Shown here: positions 2,218-24,704 of the stretch, piece after piece | How the letters are laid out: each line of letters opens with the position of its first letter | How positions within the stretch are numbered: the first letter of the stretch is position 1 | NCBI GenBank assembly: GCA_039630055.1 | Contig: JBCNVN010000020.1 | Coordinates: forward strand, 1 to 28,152 | Direction: 5' to 3' | Source: Candidatus Caldarchaeales archaeon | GTDB taxonomy: Archaea; Thermoproteota; Nitrososphaeria_A; Caldarchaeales; Wolframiiraptoraceae | DNA length: 28,152 nucleotides | Notes under the pieces: model-generated | The model's input: only the letters and a program-made list of their open reading frames with translations | Databases searched by the model: none | Told to the model about the DNA's origin: nothing | Program-made: the position numbers and the translations under genes

Positions 2218-2292
2218 ATGGGATTCCAGAAAAACAGCATCACCAAATCCTTCTACTTCTTCTGGAGCTACTTCTATTTTGCCCTAGCATAA
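2218..2292 (+). CDS. Aromatic-residue-rich leader peptide (24 aa, MGFQKNSITKSFYFFWSYFYFALA)
   Basis: ATG 2218 to TAA 2290-2292; SD-like GAGGT at 2204-2208; codons 12-21 = F Y F F W S Y F Y F; ends 44 nt before lysC, first gene of the aromatic biosynthesis operon. Confidence 0.85.
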   Translation: MGFQKNSITKSFYFFWSYFYFALA

Positions 2293-2339
2293 GCTAGGGC
2301 GCCGAAAAATTCTTCTCTATATCGGGGTGCTCTGGTTTG
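2281..2339 (+). promoter_or_regulatory. Putative attenuator RNA switch (alternative hairpins controlling the lysC ribosome-binding site)
   Basis: GCCCTAGC-ataa-GCTAGGGC (2281-2300, perfect 8 bp) competes with a 14-pair helix 2290-2303/2326-2339 (9 Watson-Crick, 5 G-U) covering most of the SD GGGGTG and the TTG start. Confidence 0.7.
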
Positions 2340-3557
2340 GTTAAGAATATAGTAGTTAAACTGGGTGGATCTGTCTTAAAAGATGTTTCGGCAATAGCAG
2401 ATGCTGCAAACTGGGTTAGGAAGCTGGTTGAGAATGGTTACGGAGTGGTTGTCGTGGTCTCAGCATTGAAGGGAGTAACCGATGAGCTAATAAATACTGT
2501 GAAGAATTTATCGAAGAATCCTGAACCATCTTTGATAGATGAGATACTTGCGATGGGTGAGAGAACTAGTGTAAGACTTTTCGCTCTAGCATTGAGAGAA
2601 CATGGGATAAACACTTTATTCATCGATCCAGCAGATGAAAAATGGCCAATAATAACAAATGATAAACATTTAGACGCTGAGCCAATCTATGAAGAAACAA
2701 GGAAGAAGGTAGAGGAGAAGCTGGTTCCTTTGATACGGGAAGGAGTGGTTCCCGTGATCTGTGGATTCGTAGGCATCACCCGTCAAGGTAAGATAACAAC
2801 ACTAGGTAGAGGTGGAAGTGATACTACTGCAGTTCTACTTGGAAGCTGTCTTGACTCAGAAGAGATAGTATTGGTAAAAGATGTTCCAGGAATATTCTCA
2901 GCGGATCCAGATATTGTTGAAGATGCAAGAATACTTGAGGAACTAGATTTTAAAGAAGTTCAAGCGCTGGTAAGAGGCGGGTCAAAAATAATTCATACAA
3001 AGGCTTTAAGATATTTAAATAGACGACTAAAACTAAGGATCGCAAGTTTAAAAGAATTATTAAGTGATAGAGGAACAATTATCAAAGGATATGATCCAGA
3101 GATAGAGGTTTATGCTCCTCCTATCAGGATAGTGATGGCCACAATAGTTGGTAAGCATTTAGACGGTGTGCAGATATATGAGAAACTGATAGAAAAGCTG
3201 AAAGATCGAGGTATAAGAATAATAGCTCTGACCAGCGAGGAACAATCTCTAATACTATACGTTGAAGAAAAAGATGGGATAATAGGTGACATTCATTCAA
3301 GCCTCGTCTCTACTGACTTGGGTAAAGCCATCAGCTTCTATCAAGACCTAGCGATGCTGGTGATCTCTGGTAGAATGCTCGAGACGAGTCCAGGTATAAT
3401 ATACAAAGTTACCAAACCACTTGCAGAAGCTGGTATAAACATCTATGGACTGCTAACCATAAGTTCATCGATAAGGCTAATAATATCTAGTGGAGATATC
3501 CAGAAGACTAAAGAGATGTTAATAAAGGAATTAGAGAAAAGTGAGGTGAAAGGATGA
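2337..3557 (+). CDS. lysC: Aspartate kinase with C-terminal ACT domains
   Basis: VVKLGGSV, VVVVSA, GER, TTLGRGGSDTTA, DVPGIFSADP motifs; TTG start with SD GGGGTG at 2324-2329. Confidence 0.95.
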   Translation: MVKNIVVKLGGSVLKDVSAIADAANWVRKLVENGYGVVVVVSALKGVTDELINTVKNLSKNPEPSLIDEILAMGERTSVRLFALALREHGINTLFIDPADEKWPIITNDKHLDAEPIYEETRKKVEEKLVPLIREGVVPVICGFVGITRQGKITTLGRGGSDTTAVLLGSCLDSEEIVLVKDVPGIFSADPDIVEDARILEELDFKEVQALVRGGSKIIHTKALRYLNRRLKLRIASLKELLSDRGTIIKGYDPEIEVYAPPIRIVMATIVGKHLDGVQIYEKLIEKLKDRGIRIIALTSEEQSLILYVEEKDGIIGDIHSSLVSTDLGKAISFYQDLAMLVISGRMLETSPGIIYKVTKPLAEAGINIYGLLTISSSIRLIISSGDIQKTKEMLIKELEKSEVKG

Positions 3558-4606
3558 GAACTGTAAAGATTGGAGTACTTGGAGCGACGGGAATGGCTGG
3601 GGTAGAGTATGTAGAGCTACTTGCGAATCATCCATGGTTTAAGATATCCTGCCTTACTGGGAAGAAGAGCGTTGGAAAGAAGTATGGAGATGCAGTAAAA
3701 GCCTTGGTAAATGCTCCTAAAGAGATAGCAGATATAGAGATAGTTGAACCCGATCCGAAGAAGGTTGATGCCGATCTAGTCTTCTCCTCTCTACCTTCAG
3801 AGGTTGCAAGAGAGATAGAAACCAAATTTCTAGAACATGGTTTCCGGATCGTTAGCGAAACCTCAGCATATAGGATGGAGCTTGACGTCCCCTTGATAGT
3901 TCCAGAGATAAATCCAGAACATCTAGATCTAATAAAGATTCAGAGGAAGATTAGGGATGGATTCATAGTGACTACACCTAACTGTACTGCTGTAGGTCTT
4001 GCACTCTCACTCAAACCGATATTAGATAGTTTTGGGATTAGAAAGGTTGTCGTAGCAACTTATCAAGCGGTTACAGGTGCAGGCTTCCCCGGAGTACCAT
4101 CATTCTTGATACTTGGAAACATCATTCCATATATTAAGAAGGAAGAAGAGAAGGTCTCATCAGAGACTAAAAAGATCTTGGGGAGGCTGGACAAGGACAG
4201 GGTCGAGTATGCAAGATTCCCTGTTGAAGCATCATGTGCTAGAGTTCCAACTATTGATGGACATTTAGAAGCAGTCTATGTTGAGACAGAGAAAGATGTT
4301 AAAGTCGATGAGGCTGTTGAAGTATTTAGAAGATTTAGGGGAGAGCCTCAGAAGCTCAACCTACCTACAGCTCCGAGAGAACCTATACTGGTTACAGACA
4401 TCGAGGATAGACCTCAACCTAGATTGGATGTTATGTCTGGAACAGTACCGGGTATGAGCATTGTCGTGGGCAGGGTGAGGAGAGGAGAATCAAGTAATAC
4501 TCTAAAATACTTTGTATTGAGTCATAATAGAATCAGAGGAGCGGCGGGTGTAGCTATCTTGACAGCTGAACTCCTCGCAGTTAGAGGATACTTGGAGGGT
4601 GGTTAA
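3554..4606 (+). CDS. asd: Aspartate-semialdehyde dehydrogenase (archaeal type)
   Basis: LGATGMAG Rossmann motif, catalytic PNCT, RVPTIDGH, HNRIRGAAG; ATGA overlap with lysC. Confidence 0.96.
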   Translation: MRTVKIGVLGATGMAGVEYVELLANHPWFKISCLTGKKSVGKKYGDAVKALVNAPKEIADIEIVEPDPKKVDADLVFSSLPSEVAREIETKFLEHGFRIVSETSAYRMELDVPLIVPEINPEHLDLIKIQRKIRDGFIVTTPNCTAVGLALSLKPILDSFGIRKVVVATYQAVTGAGFPGVPSFLILGNIIPYIKKEEEKVSSETKKILGRLDKDRVEYARFPVEASCARVPTIDGHLEAVYVETEKDVKVDEAVEVFRRFRGEPQKLNLPTAPREPILVTDIEDRPQPRLDVMSGTVPGMSIVVGRVRRGESSNTLKYFVLSHNRIRGAAGVAILTAELLAVRGYLEGG

Positions 4607-5406
4607 TGGTCACTGGTAAACTTGTTAGAATCTCTAGAATAACCTCCAATAACAAGATGCTATGCGTCCCTATGGACCATGGGGTAACGGTTGGTCCGAT
4701 AAAGGGGATAGACCGGATCCATGAAACGATAGAGAAGGTTGAAAGAGGAGGTGCTACAGCGATATTGGTACATAAAGGAATTCTGAAGAGTCTGTTGAAA
4801 CCTCTCAAGTTGGGTTTAATAGTCCATCTATCAGCCTCAACCAGTTTATCTTCAAATCCAAACCTGAAAGTCAGGGTTGGAACCGTAGAAGAAGCAATAA
4901 GACTTGGAGCTGATGCGTTATCACTCCACATCAATGTAGGGAATAAAGATGAACAAGATATGCTGGTCAAGCTTGGAATGATGGCCGATCATTGTGATGA
5001 GTGGGGGATGCCCTTAATAGCGATGATGTATCCGAGAGGGGAGAACATAAAGAACCCAAACGATCCGAATTTGATAGCACATCTAGCAAGGATAGCTGCA
5101 GAGCTTGGAGCAGACATAGTAAAGGTTCCCATGCCCTCGTCAGACCCAGATGAAATTAAACTGATCGTTAGAGGATGCCCAGTGCCTATAGTTGCTGCTG
5201 GAGGGCCAAAACTAGATGATGACCGTCAAGTATTAGAGCTTGCCAATGCTGTGATTATGGCTGGAGGATACGGTATAACATTTGGTAGAAACATCTTTCA
5301 ACATAATGACCCAGAGCTTATCACTAGAGCGCTTAGAAAGATAGTGATCGATGGAGCAGGGGTCGAGGATGCTCTAAAAATACTTAAAGGTGCAGGCCAT
5401 GAATAA
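4606..5406 (+). CDS. aroA': 2-amino-3,7-dideoxy-D-threo-hept-6-ulosonate (ADH) synthase, class I aldolase family
   Basis: PMDHGVTVGP, MYPRG, ELGADIVK Schiff-base lysine, AGGPK, GRNIFQH; adjacent to DHQ synthase II; TAATG overlap with asd. Confidence 0.88.
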   Translation: MVTGKLVRISRITSNNKMLCVPMDHGVTVGPIKGIDRIHETIEKVERGGATAILVHKGILKSLLKPLKLGLIVHLSASTSLSSNPNLKVRVGTVEEAIRLGADALSLHINVGNKDEQDMLVKLGMMADHCDEWGMPLIAMMYPRGENIKNPNDPNLIAHLARIAAELGADIVKVPMPSSDPDEIKLIVRGCPVPIVAAGGPKLDDDRQVLELANAVIMAGGYGITFGRNIFQHNDPELITRALRKIVIDGAGVEDALKILKGAGHE

Positions 5407-6430
5407 ACATATAATACTATACCCGAAAAGTCTAGACAAGAAGATCTTAGATTATGCAGCATCTCTAGGTATAAAAGATGTTTACTATAAAAGCAAAGAA
5501 GTGCCTAGAGAAATTATAGGCTCCTTTAACATATACCTAGAGAAAGAGGATGGAGAAATAGAAGTAATAGGAAGAGATGCGGAGAAAAATGCTGTAAAGA
5601 TTAGAGTAGAAGAAGCTAATGATATTGAAAATGTTTTGAATACTGCACGCTCCGGAGCTAAGATGATACTGGTAGATACACCTTCATGGAAGATTATCCC
5701 CTTAGAGAATTTAATAGCAGAACTTCAAGGTACTGATGTAAGACTATATGCATATAGTCCAAGTCCTGAAGATGTTGAGGCCCTCCTAGGAGTTCTAGAG
5801 AGAGGTGTAGACGGAGTCGTCGTCAATGTAGATGATATTGAAGATGTTGAGAAGCTCTTCGAAATGATTAAAACAATTAGGAGGGTGGACTTGGTTGATG
5901 CTGAGGTTGTAGATGTTGAGAGCATCGGGATGGGTGATAGAGTATGTGTTGATACTGTATCTATACTAGATATGGGCGAGGGGTTGCTGGTCGGCAACAC
6001 TGCACAGTTCTTCTTCCTTGTACATAATGAAAATATTGAGTCGGTTTTCACAGCTCCCAGACCTTTTAGGGTTAACGCTGGAGCAGTACATTCATATGTA
6101 ATGATGCCTGATGGGTCAACCAGGTATCTTTCAGAGATCTCCTCTGGAACAAGAATTCTTATAGTATCGAGAAGTGGTCAAGCAAGGATGGTCACTGTCG
6201 GAAGAGTTAAGATTGAAAAGAGGCCTATGAGATTGATTAGAGCCAGGTTTAAAGATGTGGAAGGATCTGTAATCTTACAAGATGCTGAGACCATCAGGTT
6301 AGTTAAAGGTGGTGACTCATTTATCTCTGTAACAGACCTAAGCCCGGGTGAGAAGATCATAGCGCATATCTCAGAGGTTAAAGCAAGACATTTCGGAAAA
6401 GCAGTCAATGAATTTATCATAGAACGTTAG
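5399..6430 (+). CDS. aroB': 3-dehydroquinate synthase II
   Basis: WKIIPLENLIA, GDRVCVDT, RPFRVNAGAVHSY, LQDAETIRL, ARHFG. Start placed at ATG 5399 behind AAGGTG rather than GTG 5390. Confidence 0.95.
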   Translation: MNKHIILYPKSLDKKILDYAASLGIKDVYYKSKEVPREIIGSFNIYLEKEDGEIEVIGRDAEKNAVKIRVEEANDIENVLNTARSGAKMILVDTPSWKIIPLENLIAELQGTDVRLYAYSPSPEDVEALLGVLERGVDGVVVNVDDIEDVEKLFEMIKTIRRVDLVDAEVVDVESIGMGDRVCVDTVSILDMGEGLLVGNTAQFFFLVHNENIESVFTAPRPFRVNAGAVHSYVMMPDGSTRYLSEISSGTRILIVSRSGQARMVTVGRVKIEKRPMRLIRARFKDVEGSVILQDAETIRLVKGGDSFISVTDLSPGEKIIAHISEVKARHFGKAVNEFIIER

Positions 6431-6432
6431 AC

Positions 6433-7113
6433 ATGAAACCACAGGTCTGCGTAAGCATTAAAGCTAGGACGGTTGAAGAATTAGAATGGAAAGCTAAGAG
6501 AGCCTTAGATATAGGGGGAGACCTGGTCGAGCTCAGATTAGACTACCTTCTCAACCCCTTCGATGAAGACCTAACAAGACTAGTCTTAGACCTTAGTCAT
6601 AGAGTTGTCATAACAATTAGACCTTGGTGGGAGGGTGGAGAGTATCAGGGAGACGAGAGCTCGAGGATAAGTCTGTTTAATGAACTGGCAGAGTTGAAAC
6701 CTGCATATGTAGATTTAGAACTAAGAACTTTAAAGATGAAAGGAGACATTTGTATGAAGGCTCGTAAGATAGTATCATGGCATAGTCTAGACGGTACTCC
6801 GAGTATTGATATTATCAGTAGGACAGTTTACGAGATGCTAAAATTAGGAGACATCTCTAAGATAGTCACAAAGATCAACAATTTTGAAGAAAATTTAAAG
6901 ATCCTTAGACTATATAAAATGTATCCTCCAGAGAGGCTGATAGCATTTGGAATAGGCGAATACGGTATCCTTTCCCGAATACTCTCAATAATAATTGGGT
7001 CACCAATAGTATACTCATGTCTTCCGGGAGAGGAACTAGCTCCAGGTCAACTAACTGTTGGAGAGGTAGTTGAGATCATGCATCTCTTGGAGGATAAGAA
7101 GCTATGGAGATAA
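6433..7113 (+). CDS. aroD: 3-dehydroquinate dehydratase type I
   Basis: VELRLDYL, TIR...EGG, YVDLEL, VSWH, APGQ motifs; operon context. Confidence 0.92.
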   Translation: MKPQVCVSIKARTVEELEWKAKRALDIGGDLVELRLDYLLNPFDEDLTRLVLDLSHRVVITIRPWWEGGEYQGDESSRISLFNELAELKPAYVDLELRTLKMKGDICMKARKIVSWHSLDGTPSIDIISRTVYEMLKLGDISKIVTKINNFEENLKILRLYKMYPPERLIAFGIGEYGILSRILSIIIGSPIVYSCLPGEELAPGQLTVGEVVEIMHLLEDKKLWR

Positions 7114-7967
7114 CCTCGAAGAGTAAGCTTTACTGTTTGATAGGCCATCCAGTCGGGCACTCCATCTCTCCCCAAATACATAATGCTGCCTTCAAATATT
7201 TCAACCTAGACTGTGTTTATCTATCGTTTGATGTTGAGCCTATCCATCTATCTATGGTTGTTAGAGGGTTTAAGGCATTAAAAATCGGCGGTTTCAACGT
7301 TACTATACCACACAAGATATCTATAAGAAGATACATTGATGAACATGATATATCTTCAAAAGAGACCGGAGCAGTAAATACCGTAGTATTAAGAAATAAT
7401 AAATATGTAGGCTATAATACAGATGTTGAAGGAATAAAAAAGTCTCTAGAAGAATTTGAAGATCTAGTAGATGGGAGAGCTTTGATCTTAGGAGCGGGTG
7501 GAGTAGCTAGAGCAGCGGTGGCAGCTTTAAAATCGCTCGGTCTCGAAGAAATAATAATTGCAAATAGGAGATTGATGAGGGCGGCCGCCCTAGTTAGGAG
7601 ATTTAAGGATGAAGGTTTGAAGATGAGGCCTGTACATTTTCATGAAGCGAGAAGATACTCTAAATCCTGCTCTCTCATCATCAATGCAACACCTATAGGT
7701 ATGTGGCCACATATAGATGAAACACCATTAAACTCGAACGATATTTCAAGAGGATCATTAGTCCTCGACCTAGTCTATAACCCGCTAAAGACTAGATTTA
7801 TTGAAGAAGCGAGGAAAGCGGGTGCTAAGATAGTATATGGTTTAAAGCCTCTCATCGAACAGGCGAGAAGATCATTTCAACTATGGACAGGTTTTGAGCC
7901 TCCCCTAGAACTTCTCTGGAAGATAGCTGAGAAACAGCTTAAAGCTTGGGATAAACATGAAGGTTAG
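7104..7967 (+). CDS. aroE: Shikimate dehydrogenase
   Basis: GHSISPQIHN, NVTIPHK, GAVNT, GYNTD, GAGGVARA, NATPIGM, DLVYNP. Confidence 0.96.
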   Translation: MEITSKSKLYCLIGHPVGHSISPQIHNAAFKYFNLDCVYLSFDVEPIHLSMVVRGFKALKIGGFNVTIPHKISIRRYIDEHDISSKETGAVNTVVLRNNKYVGYNTDVEGIKKSLEEFEDLVDGRALILGAGGVARAAVAALKSLGLEEIIIANRRLMRAAALVRRFKDEGLKMRPVHFHEARRYSKSCSLIINATPIGMWPHIDETPLNSNDISRGSLVLDLVYNPLKTRFIEEARKAGAKIVYGLKPLIEQARRSFQLWTGFEPPLELLWKIAEKQLKAWDKHEG

Positions 7968-8829
7968 AGCAATCGTTCATGGAGCCATATCTATTCTCAA
8001 CGCCATTCCAGCTGGGATAGGTGGAGCGATCGGTATAGATCTTCAAACAATGGTTGAAGCAGAATCCTTAGAGGATGAAAAAAAGCTACATGTTGAGATA
8101 AAAGTAGAAGATGATAGAGTAGAAGATATTTCACTGGTGGAGAAGACGGTTGATAGGATTCTAAAACTTTCTAGAGACCGAGATATAGGAATAGGATTGA
8201 AGATCTCTTCAAATATTCCGGTTGCTAGAGGTTTAAAGAGTTCTAGTGCTGTGACAGATGCTGTAACCTTAGCTGTTTCAAAACTGCTCGGGATAGACCT
8301 AAGCCTAATGGAAGCTGTAAATCTAGCAGTTGAATCTTCTATAGATGCTGGAGTAACCATTACAGGCGCATATGATGATGCATTAACATGTATGATAGGA
8401 GGAGTAAACATTACGGATAACTATAAGAGAGAGATACTGGCCCACTGGGAGATCGAGGAGAAATACAGCATACTTATTATGGTACCTGAAAAAAAGATAT
8501 ATACAAAGACCGTAGATGTATCGGCCTTGAGAAACATTGGAGAACTTTCTCGAAGAGTTGCTGAACTTGCTCTTAATGGATGGATATGGGATGCGATGAT
8601 ACTCAACGGTATTCTGATTGCCTCGGCACTAGAACTAGATTATGAGCCTGTAATGGTTGCATTGAAGAATAAAGCGACTGCTTCAGGGATCTCCGGTAAG
8701 GGGCCTGCTGTAGTCGCTGTTACATTACCAGAATATGAGAGAGAGCTAGAGACCGAGCTCAAGAATTATGGTAAGATTATAAAGACTAGACCTAGCAACC
8801 AGCTTGCAAAAGTAGAAGTTGTAAAATAA
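7957..8829 (+). CDS. aroK: Archaeal shikimate kinase (GHMP family)
   Basis: GAISILNAIPAGIG, IPVARGLKSSSA, VTITGAYDD, SGKGP. Confidence 0.94.
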   Translation: MKVRAIVHGAISILNAIPAGIGGAIGIDLQTMVEAESLEDEKKLHVEIKVEDDRVEDISLVEKTVDRILKLSRDRDIGIGLKISSNIPVARGLKSSSAVTDAVTLAVSKLLGIDLSLMEAVNLAVESSIDAGVTITGAYDDALTCMIGGVNITDNYKREILAHWEIEEKYSILIMVPEKKIYTKTVDVSALRNIGELSRRVAELALNGWIWDAMILNGILIASALELDYEPVMVALKNKATASGISGKGPAVVAVTLPEYERELETELKNYGKIIKTRPSNQLAKVEVVK

Positions 8830-14974: not shown

Positions 14975-15890
14975 TCATTCTTTAATCAGACGACTTCTCG
15001 GTGGTAGGGATAAAAGCGAAGTGTAAATCTTGTCTATATTTAGTGATGCTCCCCTCTTGAGATTATCAAATAATATGAACGTTTTCAATCCGATCTCTAT
15101 AAGCTTCTCATCCAAGATGGAGATATCTGAATCATCTATCCTGATCAAACCCTCCTTAGAATAATCATTTACTACCATCAAGATACAGCCTGTGAATTTT
15201 CTGATCCTAAGACATCTCTCATAATAATTTCTCAGTATACAGTATGCTGAAGACTCCATCTCGCTCGATATCGCACCCATCTCAATGTAAGATTGAAGCT
15301 TCTCTTTAAGCTCTAAACGTCTCGGAGAAAAGCTCGGCCTCTCCCTAAAGTATAGGTAATCCTCCGTGTGACTGGACCTATCCAAGGGTCCCCCTAATTT
15401 GTAGCCAAGGTCTTCAGAAGCCGATACTAGTAGAGGTATGGTCTCGATGTTCGCAATGGGAGGATATTCGTGGCCGACTACCGGGGTAGTTGAACCCTCA
15501 TCTCTAATACATCCTGTAGGGACATGTATATGTCCTCTCTTTACATAAGGCTGTAAAGATCCTGATGTACCAAGTCTAAGGATAAATATGGACTCTCCAT
15601 GGACAGACTCTATAATCTCTGGTAAGATTACCATCACACTCGCTGGCCCCACATCCATAGAGATCGCAGAGACTTCCAATCCTTAATATATGCCATTTAC
15701 TACAACATGACCTCTCTTCCCGATAATAACTTCAGAGTATTCTAAATATCCTGCTACTTTCCTTATACTTTCGGCCGAGCCGCCTGCTAAAATATAGGGA
15801 CCGAGTTTATCAACTTCTAAGTGGGCTGTTTTACCACTACACGTAAAAAGTGATCTTCATAATCTTTTTCTCCAGGAAAAATACTCGGAC
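14975..15890 (-). pseudogene. Disrupted uridine/purine nucleoside phosphorylase (PNP/UDP family)
   Basis: RLGTSGSLQ, RDEGST, SEMES motifs. The frame extends upstream (TAHLEVDKLGPYILAGGSAESIRKVAGYL...NGIY*GLEV) through an in-frame TAA at 15683-15685, and there is no clean in-frame start. 5' boundary approximate. Confidence 0.8.
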
Positions 15891-16033
15891 CAATATTTAT
15901 AAATTAAAAAGTTAAAGAGCTTTATTACTCAAATGATTATACTTCTCCTCGAACTTCTCTAGGTTCGGGATGGATGAAATTTTTGATATCATGCTCCCTT
16001 GTAAAAAGCTAAGAGAATCACAAGTCTTTCAAT

Positions 16034-16300
16034 CTACTCTTTCTTCTCTTCAGTAAGTTCCTTTCCCAGTTCTTTCTCAATCTCTTCTATCGGTTTCGGA
16101 GGTGGCGTGGTAGCCAAAGTGTATCCTATCCAAGCAAGTATTGCGAGGACCCCCGTAACGGCAACGAATGCTGTTATCTTTAAGACGATCATCCCCCAAT
16201 CTGAGAAGAAGAGTAGCCAATTATAGACTAATATACCTATGATGGATGCGACGAGTATTAGTACGCCGGCTAGTACATCTCTGCTCAAACCTTTATCCAC
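16034..16300 (-). CDS. Small archaeal two-TM membrane protein of unknown function
   Basis: Two TM helices followed by WIGYTLATTPPPKPIEEIEKE, a C-terminus I recognise from conserved archaeal hypothetical proteins. Confidence 0.8.
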   Translation of the reverse strand: MDKGLSRDVLAGVLILVASIIGILVYNWLLFFSDWGMIVLKITAFVAVTGVLAILAWIGYTLATTPPPKPIEEIEKELGKELTEEKKE

Positions 16301-16470
16301 ACTCCACTGGTAAGAAGCCGACTCACTGATTTTTATATTTTTTCTATCTTTCCAGCTTGATAAATATAGTTTTGCATCAAAATTTACATACTATTCTGAA
16401 ATGTCTCTCCGATAGCTCAGAGTAGAAATATCTCATATCACGGATCTTCCATATCTATCTAGAATCCCTA

Positions 16471-16603
16471 AATCTTCAAGACTCTTTCAAATAGGATTTA
16501 TTTATTCAGGTCTCCCGACTTTACCCTTACGCGGTACAGCTCTCCACAGCACGTAACACTTAATAAACATACTTCAAATAAATTCCTATTTGGACTGAAG
16601 ATT
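16471..16603. repeat. Degenerate inverted-repeat pair (MITE-like remnant or paired operator)
   Basis: CAAATAGGATTTATTT (16488-16503) versus AAATAAATTCCTATTTG (16576-16592, one indel), with outer AATCTTCA (16471-16478) / TGAAGATT (16596-16603). Confidence 0.5.
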
Positions 16604-16647
16604 AAGAGTTTATATTATTGTGAAATGTTATACAAGTCTAGATTAGA

Positions 16648-17937
16648 TTGGATAGGGTATATGTTAACCCCTCGATAGTATATGGTGAAGTAAATGCTCC
16701 TCCGAGTAAGAGCTATACCCATAGAGCTTATGCCGTATCTTTACTAGTCGATGGTAAAAACTTCATATACAGTCCACTTAGATCGAGAGATACTCAAGCA
16801 ACTTTAAGAGCATGTCAACAGTTTGGAGCAGAAGTCTATGAGGAGGGAAGTTCTAAAATTATTGTAGGCGGCGGCTTAAAGCTACCTGAAAATATTGTAG
16901 ATGCTGAAAACTCTGGAACAACACTTAGAATATTTACAGCGATATCTGCACTTCCACCATCTGGATATGTTGTATTGACAGGCGATGAGAGTTTGAGGAG
17001 GAGACCTATGAAACCATTACTAGATGCTCTCAAGCTCTTAGGAGTAGATTGCTGGTCTACGAGGGGAGATGGATGTGCACCTATAATCGTTAAATCAGGT
17101 GGGATAAAAGGTGGAGAAACGGTTGTGAGAGGAGATGTATCATCCCAGTTTGTCTCTGCATTACTGATAGCCTCTACTAAAGCTGAGAGAGAGACAAAGA
17201 TAAGAGTTGAAGGAAACATAGTATCAAAGAAGTATATCGATGCAACTATAGAAGTGCTGAAGAGATACGGGTATCATGTTCGGAGGGAAGGTTACACACT
17301 ATTTGAAGTAGAACCGAGTCAGCATGGACACCCCACCCATTTTAAGATACCTGGAGACTTTAGTTCAGCCTCATTCCTCTTCGCCGGTGCATATTTAACT
17401 GGTGGAAGAGTCGAGATAGAGAATCTAAGCCTAGACCTTCCCCAGGCAGATTCAGTCATAATCGATATTCTAAGAGATTTCGATAATAAGGTAACTATCG
17501 GCTCATCTAAGATTATTGTGGAAAGTAGAGGTATCAGTTCAGGTGATAGAGAGTATGATCTAGTAGACTCGCCAGATCTAGTTCCAGTGATCGCAGTCAT
17601 GGCCTCAAAATCTCCTGGAGAGACAATTATCAAAGGTGTTAGACATGCAAGGTTCAAAGAGAGCGATAGAATTACTTCGACTGCACTTGAATTAAGGAAG
17701 CTCAATATAGATGTAGAAATATTGGAGGATGGTATGAAGATAAGAGGTAGAGAAGAGATTGAAGGTGGGGTAGAGTTAGATTCACATAATGATCATAGAT
17801 TATCGATGGCCTTCTCAATACTTGCAGCATCGACAAGGAAAGGATGTATCGTAAACGGATTAAGATGGGCTGAGATCTCTTATCCGAACTATCTTGAAGA
17901 CTTGAAAAAACTAGGTGTATCATTTAGAGAGGTTTGA
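16648..17937 (+). CDS. aroA: 3-phosphoshikimate 1-carboxyvinyltransferase (EPSP synthase)
   Basis: PPSKSYTHRA, NSGTTLR, RRPM, SSQFVSALL, PGDFSSA, RFKESDRI, DHRLSM. Confidence 0.96.
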   Translation: MDRVYVNPSIVYGEVNAPPSKSYTHRAYAVSLLVDGKNFIYSPLRSRDTQATLRACQQFGAEVYEEGSSKIIVGGGLKLPENIVDAENSGTTLRIFTAISALPPSGYVVLTGDESLRRRPMKPLLDALKLLGVDCWSTRGDGCAPIIVKSGGIKGGETVVRGDVSSQFVSALLIASTKAERETKIRVEGNIVSKKYIDATIEVLKRYGYHVRREGYTLFEVEPSQHGHPTHFKIPGDFSSASFLFAGAYLTGGRVEIENLSLDLPQADSVIIDILRDFDNKVTIGSSKIIVESRGISSGDREYDLVDSPDLVPVIAVMASKSPGETIIKGVRHARFKESDRITSTALELRKLNIDVEILEDGMKIRGREEIEGGVELDSHNDHRLSMAFSILAASTRKGCIVNGLRWAEISYPNYLEDLKKLGVSFREV

Positions 17938-18548: not shown

Positions 18549-19670
18549 ATGATTAGAGTGACAGGGAATATTCTTGGTGAAAGATTTGTAGTAGTAAGCT
18601 TTGGTGAAAGCCATGGTAGATGTATAGGTGTAGTAGTTGACGGGTGTCCCGCCGGACTAGAAATCTCAGAGATAGATATTCAGAGAGAGCTAGATCTGAG
18701 AAGACCTGGACTAGCTGAGATATATACTAAGAGAATGGAAGAAGATAGAGTAGAGATCTTGTCAGGAGTATTTAATGGATATACTACTGGAGCACCAATA
18801 TGTATGATTGTATGGAATAAAGATGTAAAGAGTAAAGATTATGAATCATTAAGATATATGCCTAGACCTGGACACGCAGATTATTTCGCACATGTAAAAT
18901 ATGGCGGTTTCAATGATTATAGAGGAGGGGGAAGATTTTCCGGCAGAATTACCGCAGGCTTCGTAATGGCTGGAGCAATAGCCAAGAAACTTCTGAGAAG
19001 AGTTCTGGGAATAGAGATAGTAGCATACTCATTAGAGATTGGAGGGGAGAGAGCTGAGGATTTTACACTTGAAGATGCTCGAAGATTCAGATATGAGAAT
19101 GAAGTGAGAGCTCCAACAATCAAGTCTGCAGAAAAGATGAAGGAAAAGATAATGGAAGCTATGTCGAAAGGTGATAGTGTAGGAGGAATAGTTGAATGTG
19201 TAGTAGCAGGGTTGCCGATAGGTCTTGGAGAGCCAGTATTCGACTCGCTCGACTCAGATTTAGCTAAAGCCTTATTCTCTATTCCAGCTGTTAAAGGTGT
19301 AGAGTTTGGAGCAGGATTCAAAGCATCCAGAATGTTAGGCTCTCAACATAATGATCCGATGGTCATACGGGATGGTGAGATCGTTCTTCAGAAGAATGAT
19401 GCTGGAGGAGTTATTGGCGGGATCTCTACTGGAGCACCAATAATCTTTAGAGTCGTATTCAAACCACCCTCATCTATATCTGTAAAACAGAAGACTGTAG
19501 ATATAAAGAATAGAAAAGAGGTTGAGATCACTGTGAGCGGTAGACATGATCCATGTATTGTTCCAAGAGCAGTCCCTGTAGTTGAATCCATATCTGCTAT
19601 TGTATTAGCTGATCATGCATTAAGAGGAGGCTTTATACCTACAGTAATAAAAAGTAATTTGAGAGAGTAG
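18549..19670 (+). CDS. aroC: Chorismate synthase
   Basis: FGESHG, RRPG, PRPGHAD, YRGGGRFSGR, GGISTG, GRHDPC. Start could be GTG 18558. Confidence 0.97.
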   Translation: MIRVTGNILGERFVVVSFGESHGRCIGVVVDGCPAGLEISEIDIQRELDLRRPGLAEIYTKRMEEDRVEILSGVFNGYTTGAPICMIVWNKDVKSKDYESLRYMPRPGHADYFAHVKYGGFNDYRGGGRFSGRITAGFVMAGAIAKKLLRRVLGIEIVAYSLEIGGERAEDFTLEDARRFRYENEVRAPTIKSAEKMKEKIMEAMSKGDSVGGIVECVVAGLPIGLGEPVFDSLDSDLAKALFSIPAVKGVEFGAGFKASRMLGSQHNDPMVIRDGEIVLQKNDAGGVIGGISTGAPIIFRVVFKPPSSISVKQKTVDIKNRKEVEITVSGRHDPCIVPRAVPVVESISAIVLADHALRGGFIPTVIKSNLRE

Positions 19671-24596: not shown

Positions 24597-24704
24597 GCCC
24601 CGGTAGCTCAGCCCGGGAGAGCGCCCGGCTGAAGATAAATCCGAGATAGAGAGGTTTTTGTAATGGGAACCGGGTTGTCGCAGGTTCAAATCCTGCCCGG
24701 GGCA
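24597..24704 (+). tRNA. tRNA-Phe(GAA) with a 34-nt intron at 37/38 (about 24635-24668); CCA not encoded
   Basis: Acceptor GCCCCGG/CCGGGGC+A; D arm GCTC/GAGC; anticodon stem CCCGG/CCGGG with CT-GAA-G; T arm GCAGG-TTCAAAT-CCTGC. Confidence 0.95.

Follow-up and report, generated by a model that had tools for sequence, protein, structure and literature searches.

The 5' leader of an aromatic-precursor operon in a Candidatus Caldarchaeales archaeon carries a short upstream open reading frame (uORF) crowded with codons for Phe, Tyr and Trp. The most plausible reading is that of an archaeal leader-peptide attenuator, a variation on a known bacterial principle, whose output is probably translational. 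We put at roughly 0.6 the probability that the leader peptide senses amino acids and acts through something other than a terminator, probably at the level of translation. On comparative sequence evidence the uORF is a genuine leader ORF, rich in aromatic codons and strongly conserved, within a structured 5' leader; it is very probably translated, and it likely senses the charging of aromatic tRNAs. The sensor is well supported, while the actuator and its sign are what we infer. The window, by which we mean the whole stretch of DNA analysed (28,152 nucleotides; assembly GCA_039630055.1, contig JBCNVN010000020.1), is contig C13 of a 92%-complete assembly, and features lie on its + strand unless stated otherwise. 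Three DNA runs, all from one hot-spring study, contain the stretch, and no RNA run is listed for it.

The uORF occupies positions 2218 to 2292, from an ATG at 2218 to a TAA at 2290-2292, and its 24 codons specify the product MGFQKNSITKSFYFFWSYFYFALA. An SD-like GAGGT (2204-2208) lies 9 nt 5' of the ATG, and 44 nt separate the uORF stop from the TTG start codon of lysC at 2337. Further upstream, a BRE/TATA-like promoter element (2158-2175) consists of an A-rich stretch followed by TTTAATTATA (2166-2175), and appears as the conserved block GAAAnnTTTAATTA in an alignment of 11 loci. From the usual TATA spacing, the transcript is predicted to start near 2197, the first base of the conserved AGCUCCAGAGG. 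Six Phe, three Tyr and one Trp codon make 10 of the 24 codons aromatic, and these are concentrated in codons 12-21 (F Y F F W S Y F Y F, 2251-2280; nine of ten aromatic), the proposed sensor. An earlier note on this DNA had described a 24-codon aromatic-rich ORF with a GAGGT, placed between a TATA-like box and lysC, and it is present with the composition given there. In a census of 16,524 ORFs of 15-40 codons, taken from all six frames of the 1.54-Mb assembly (39.4% G+C), this was the sole ORF with nine aromatic residues in a 10-residue window, the runners-up being one with eight and five with seven. SD-like 5-mers at -18 to -4 precede 286 of 1,340 crudely called genes in the same genome, against 54 in a control window. 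On the opposite strand, a 134-codon ORF (1842-2246, -) overlaps the leader; it has no family match and its conservation is limited to its last 62 codons. These form a gene for a two-helix-like hydrophobic protein (1845-2030, -), divergent from the leader promoter and 47-77% identical in seven relatives, of which the 134-codon ORF is, judging by this conservation, an over-extended version.

The operon 3' of the leader (2337-8829, +) comprises lysC (aspartate kinase, 2337-3557), asd (aspartate-semialdehyde dehydrogenase, 3554-4606), aroA' (ADH synthase, 4606-5406), aroB' (dehydroquinate synthase II, 5390-6430), aroD (6433-7113), aroE (7104-7967) and an archaeal shikimate kinase (7957-8829), all close together or overlapping. 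The NCBIfam identities back the earlier claim that the leader heads an operon for aromatic precursors, and they also place EPSP synthase (16648-17937) and chorismate synthase (18549-19670) further along the window. Elsewhere in the assembly there is a prephenate dehydrogenase (C1:2876-3697) and a chorismate mutase domain (C7:13423-13659) within a 486-codon frame; trpE (Chorismate_bind), trpA (Trp_syntA) and prephenate dehydratase gave no match in the 92%-complete assembly. Another aspartate kinase, a longer paralogue with about 30% identity, is encoded at C12:22593-23645 (-) and is also found in most relatives, and the lysC adjacent to the leader may therefore be a copy dedicated to the aromatic pathway. 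The search for analogous leaders elsewhere in this genome, which the earlier note had proposed, came back empty: no comparable uORF was seen 5' of hisD, tyrA, EPSP synthase or aroC, and a genome-wide scan for other single-amino-acid leaders yielded nothing convincing. This result, like the missing trpE, trpA and prephenate dehydratase, counts against the sensor reading. The region just 5' of EPSP synthase (15680-16647) holds about 970 nt without an ORF of at least 100 codons. Beyond it lies a uridine-phosphorylase-like ORF (14975-15679, -) whose family match begins at profile position 54, and which may be truncated or mis-started.

Orthologues of lysC were collected from 40 relatives. A uORF precedes lysC, at about -120 to -44, in all seven same-genus genomes and all three genomes of a second genus (g3), that is, in 10 of 10 of these relatives. 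Across the two genera the N-terminal half of the peptide varies, and the C-terminal pattern FF.FWSY.YFALA is retained. The family to which these archaea belong, Wolframiiraptoraceae (Caldarchaeales, formerly Aigarchaeota), includes the genera Candidatus Geocrenenecus and Candidatus Benthortus and has one cultivated member, according to one report (PMC9246946).

An RNAalifold consensus gave two helices, P1 and P2, for which pairing statistics were taken from 22 sequences aligned, and fitted, to a covariance model. P1 joins the predicted 5' end of the mRNA (AGCUCCAGAGG, 2197-2207), which holds the SD-like GAGG(U) of the uORF, to CUUCUGGAGCU (2259-2269), made up of codons F15-W16-S17 and their flanks. 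Its 11 pairs thus link the ribosome-binding site of the uORF to its F-W-S codons, and in relatives the helix often reaches over the uORF start codon and UUC codons. Of the P1 cells in the 22 sequences, 94.6% are paired, and the helix is worth -18.0 kcal/mol at 37 C and -9.0 at 70 C. P2 is a hairpin (2281-2300) whose 5' arm GCCCUAGC (2281-2288) encodes A22-L23-A24 and whose 3' arm is GCUAGGGC (2293-2300); the loop, AUAA, contains the uORF stop codon (2290-2292). Here 97.7% of cells are paired, compensatory changes occur in three of eight pairs across the 22 sequences, and the energy is -14.8 kcal/mol at 37 C and -6.8 at 70 C. For P1 and P2 together, in this model-fitted alignment, 95.9% of cells are paired, against 28-58% for controls with slid partners, and four pairs show compensatory change.

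The covariance model comprising P1 and P2 (R1) was searched in 76 genomes of the class, and found a single forward-strand match per genome in 22 of them, with seven weaker echoes on the opposite strand that overlap the same sites. The matches cover the genus of the window (8/8, window included), g3 (3/3) and a third genus, g2 (11/14), while the other 51 genomes have none. In the 11 genomes of g2 the leader adjoins aroA' directly, in an operon that lacks lysC, and the leader therefore goes with the shikimate genes. Since FWS and ALA-stop are also arms of P1 and P2, conservation of the peptide alone proves nothing, and it is the frame test that carries the case. Among the 22 leaders, the uORF frame has no stop in 589 codons, against 32 in 567 and 21 in 567 for the other two frames, and aromatic codons make up 201 of 589 (34%) in frame against 41 of 567 (7%) and 69 of 567 (12%). 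The unpaired linker between P1 and P2 has four codons in the window's genus and g3 and 7-10 in g2; it differs in length by whole codons only, and remains rich in Phe, Tyr and Trp (e.g. WSYWYFGFYYFALA). TAA, TAG and TGA interchange at one site in the P2 loop, always in frame, the start codon and SD spacing of the uORF are maintained, and the UAUUUU just 5' of P2 is invariant at the nucleotide level. The frame is thus kept while the N-terminal codons and the length change, and in other relatives even the entire leader sequence differs; the alternative raised in the earlier note, a pyrimidine tract conserved irrespective of frame, does not describe these leaders.

In g2 (L051-L061) a second small ORF of 29-41 codons, some 30-150 nt 3' of the leader, bridges to aroA'. 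It has an SD of GGAGGUG, begins AUG UCU GGG GUC CAC and, in most of these genomes, ends in a GLG-stop that overlaps the aroA' start ATGGTTTGGGGTAAG, an overlap that suggests translational coupling. The lysC of L008 begins with the same AUGUCUGGGGUU as this second small ORF.

How the sensor might be read out is suggested by a third pairing, P3. Its upstream strand GCUAGGGCGCC (2293-2303) is the 3' arm of P2 plus the tail GCC, and P3 is therefore mutually exclusive with P2; its downstream strand GGUGCUCUGGU (2326-2336) runs from the SD to the start codon of lysC, within a translation start region (2324-2339) defined from the sequence and NCBIfam as an SD-like GGGGUG (2324-2329) and the TTG (2337-2339). 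The proposed scheme is that the time ribosomes spend reading Phe, Tyr and Trp codons would report the supply of charged aromatic tRNAs, and that this readout would set expression of the lysC-asd-aroA'B'DE-shikimate kinase operon, with control probably exerted at lysC translation and not at termination. The 3' arm of P2 could pair either with the last uORF codons (P2), leaving the lysC start free, or with the lysC region from SD to start codon (P3), masking it. With aromatic tRNAs charged, ribosomes would enter the 5' arm of P2 and free its partner to form P3, shutting lysC; with ribosomes stalled in the upstream aromatic tract, P2 would form and persist, and lysC would stay open. P1 probably restricts uORF translation to the first, co-transcriptional round; alternatively, the uORF ribosome-binding site would be open only while a ribosome occupies the sensor codons. 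As P1 hides the uORF SD, translation of the uORF may be rare. The direction of the response, with starvation turning the operon on, would follow from pathway logic and not from the structure.

Several observations are consistent with such a switch. In the window, P3 scores -19.0 kcal/mol (p=0.003 against shuffles) and its duplex energy, -17.3 kcal/mol at 37 C and -8.3 at 70 C, is similar to that of P2. Out of 1,350 start regions (mean -7.4, sd 2.7), the best partner for the 2293-2303 strand is its own lysC start region. Pairing at the place of P3 recurs among the 22 leaders, with nine reaching p<0.05 and 14 reaching p<0.1; in g2 the equivalent falls on codons 2-5 of the second small ORF. The minimum-energy fold of the window consists of P1 and P2 at 37 C and, at 70 C, of P1 and a longer P3 (2285-2303 with 2326-2343) that pairs the stop codon of the uORF with the start codon of lysC. 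When the 5' arm of P2 is masked, predicted accessibility of the SD falls in 9 of 11 sequences from the two lysC-led genera.

Other results weigh against it. P2 dominates the equilibrium ensembles, with P3 exceeding P2 in just 2 of 22 leaders at 70 C (in the window, about 2.3 expected pairs for P3 against 7.3 for P2), so that an off state based on P3 has to be kinetic. P3 is weak in L003, L004, L006, L009, L057 and L060, and in the window G-U pairs make up four of its 11. In ribosome-mask folding of the 22 leaders at 60 C, mimicking a stall at the Trp codon shifted SD accessibility in no consistent way; that single Trp codon sits in a paired arm of P1. A ribosome on the uORF stop codon would also cover the P3 strand, which counts against the scheme, and because P2 begins directly after the last aromatic codons (the invariant UAUUUU), ribosomes stalled on these should promote P3, opposite to the proposed logic. 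The P2/P3 switch as described is therefore offered tentatively, as a possibility that we would not bet on at even odds. Other pairings with the downstream start region fared as follows: that of a free 5' arm was no better than shuffles (p 0.01-0.71, 11 sequences scored), and that between the aromatic tract and the next ORF's start region reached significance in L001, L002 and five of the 11 aroA'-led leaders and nowhere else. There was also a weak CUUCU:GGGAG pairing.

The same sensor could instead act through premature transcription termination or polarity, mediated by an archaeal RNA polymerase that responds to oligo-U or by a factor acting on untranslated RNA. Classical bacterial leaders work by termination, and a P1 that limits uORF translation to the first co-transcriptional round would suit a decision taken once per transcript. 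T-runs of at least four occur within 32 nt 3' of P2 in 14 of 22 leaders, nine of them among the 11 of the aroA'-led genus. Against this, the window itself has no T-run of at least three in the 32 nt 3' of P2 and, in a scan for sigma-70-type promoters and terminators, no terminator-like site on the + strand; the distance of the T-runs from P2 varies, and no antiterminator pairing for P2 was found. We consider this output unlikely, although it is the most credible of the alternatives. As there is no intrinsic terminator in the window, the anatomy is not that of a trp-style transcriptional attenuator. The comparison across relatives supports the reading of the earlier note.

Whatever the output, the sensor itself might be an illusion, if P1 and P2 belonged to a structured regulatory RNA (a riboswitch or a protein-binding leader) and the ORF were incidental to a pyrimidine-rich arm. 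Both arms of P1 are nearly invariant, FWS and ALA-stop fall on helix arms, the loop of P1 is made of the variable N-terminal codons, and the UAUUUU 5' of P2 is conserved as nucleotides, all of which such an RNA would account for. Yet the uORF frame is open in 22 of 22 leaders against 53 stops in the other two frames, linker indels stay in frame and add aromatic codons, three stop codons swap at one site, and start codon and SD spacing are maintained. A riboswitch or T-box has an RNA core that is independent of frame, whereas here frame and stop are preserved. Nor does Rfam offer a match: an E-value scan of 1600-2600 gave chance-level matches only, and a gathering-threshold scan of the whole window returned a single tRNA and no leader family. 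Together with the leaders of unrelated sequence described below, which have only the aromatic-rich uORF in common, these points make an incidental ORF improbable. The tRNA reported by Rfam (24597-24704, +) is 108 nt long, and hence probably intron-bearing; ARAGORN reports none in the window.

In genomes of several genera without an R1 match, the leader sequences are unrelated to that of the window, and again an aromatic-rich uORF stands 5' of the first gene of the same operon. Leaders of type g4 carry MRDCLFLTTGYSYYRYSE.DASL at 7 of 7 loci, those of g11 ..FSAFTTFSYYYRW at 2 of 2 and those of g12 MERPVGMYFYPFSRYFYYRF at 2 of 2, and in family f2 MGSKNFKLIGFATYAYFYAWIS is found 5' of asd at 7 of 7 loci. 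The single g13 locus has an aromatic frame without ATG, GTG or TTG, and in g8 the uORF 5' of lysC is weak in L018-L020 and clearer in L021 and L022. No aromatic uORF was seen at the separate asd-aroA'-aroB' operon of g8 (0/3) or in family f3 (0/3). Over the 24 loci with other leader types, stops number 0 in 608 codons of the uORF frame against 39 in 584 and 30 in 584, and aromatic codons 145 of 608 against 42 of 584 and 44 of 584. In most of these types a GAGGCGG-like 5' arm, the SD of the uORF, pairs with a CCGCCUC-like stretch at or after the uORF end. The g4 consensus fold pairs the uORF end with the main SD, which on the simplest reading would mean positive coupling, that is, a direction reversed from the proposed scheme.

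The length of the peptide (24 residues), its conserved Trp and its conserved C-terminus (FWSY.YFALA) recall TnaC, and the stop codon lies at a structurally sensitive site, the loop of P2. A TnaC-type arrest peptide, in which the nascent chain and a free aromatic amino acid in the exit tunnel would stall the ribosome at the stop and hold P2/P3 open, is nevertheless very improbable. Arrest peptides of this type keep a fixed spacing between residue and stall, and here Trp lies 8 residues from the end in all 11 leaders of two genera and 11-15 in the 11 leaders of the third. The other leader types differ at the C-terminus, and the conserved C-terminus of this one is explained by the P2 arm. Furthermore, a stall triggered by abundance would leave the lysC start open, the opposite of what a biosynthetic operon needs.

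Slippage at hungry codons is less probable still. Starved ribosomes would slip to +1 in the UUC/UAU tract, pass P2 and terminate on the lysC start, turning lysC on, and in 6 of 11 lysC-led leaders (L003, L004, L005, L007, L010 and L011) a second frame does continue from the aromatic tract across P2 as far as a stop that overlaps the lysC start. The leader peptide pheL is described as prone to frameshifting in PMC3082878. Such coupling fails in the window, however, where the +1 frame closes in the 5' arm of P2 at a TAG (2285-2287); the same holds for L002, and L006 and L009 have early stops. That the product is a functional hydrophobic micropeptide with no sensor role is just as remote, its C-terminal half being conserved but its N-terminal half not, its length ranging over 23-32 residues, the other leader types resembling it in composition and not in sequence, and its location being always the 5' leader of an operon of the same pathway.

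An aromatic-sensing leader peptide with a probably translational output, the reading preferred here, shares many features with the enterobacterial leaders pheL-pheA, pheM-pheST, trpL, hisL, thrL and leuL: a biosynthetic operon preceded, in its 5' leader, by a short ORF with an SD, in which codons for the end product are crowded and the rest of the peptide is unconserved, and conserved RNA helices, here with a candidate alternative pairing. It differs from them in its archaeal host and in mixing Phe, Tyr and Trp codons in one leader before a common pathway, as well as in the lack of a hairpin-plus-U terminator in the window and of any match to an Rfam leader family. Moreover, P1 base-pairs its sensor codons to the 5' end of the mRNA, where the uORF's ribosome-binding site lies; its stop codon sits in a hairpin loop, and its candidate switch would mask the start region of the first gene. 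In this last respect it would resemble the translational attenuation of ermC and cat, where the position of the leader ribosome likewise determines pairing of the downstream ribosome-binding site. In ermC and cat, however, the stall is caused by a drug and melts the masking stem directly, whereas here the signal would be tRNA charging and an upstream stall would let the anti-masking P2 persist. The cysteine-rich short ORFs of mycobacteria, as presented in a preprint (bioRxiv 10.1101/834739), are also rich in cognate codons and act as amino-acid-responsive attenuators without a classical terminator; these are bacterial and leaderless, unlike the SD-led uORF described here, which lies inside the long-range P1.

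Amino-acid control in archaea is usually credited to DNA-binding factors, and ribosome-mediated attenuation is regarded as a bacterial device. Among the papers listed by full-text searches of the open-access literature, none dealt with cognate-codon leader peptides in archaea. One source says in general terms that uORFs regulate in archaea too (PMC10219788), and passages of three others (PMC13158618, PMC4833913, PMC2965389) contain no such statement.

Outside the class, 20 loci from other families of the phylum were considered, 19 of which were readable. Seven of ten lysC-first loci have a uORF with at least five aromatics per 10-residue window; examples are ..NPYYYYYYYCFF and ..SQFFSFDYYFYYFN, and L106 has a run of seven Tyr codons. 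In a family with an aroA'-first operon, 1 of 6 loci has an aromatic uORF. The aromatic uORFs in these several other families are a lead only. A wider generalisation, which we regard as rather unlikely to hold in full, is that the class, and probably much of the phylum, gauges aromatic amino-acid supply by leader peptides of a design undescribed in any domain. The leader's ribosome-binding site, at the extreme 5' end of its mRNA, would be paired to sensor codons, and ribosome dwell time on these would decide both continued translation of the leader and masking of the first gene's start, in a purely translational device with no terminator.

In the operon of the window, aspartate kinase and aspartate-semialdehyde dehydrogenase share one leader with the archaeal shikimate genes. 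The leader is a compact element of about 140 nt and is amenable to direct reporter tests. A cognate-codon leader kept across the class, with examples in other families, would mean that archaeal ribosomes also serve as amino-acid sensors.
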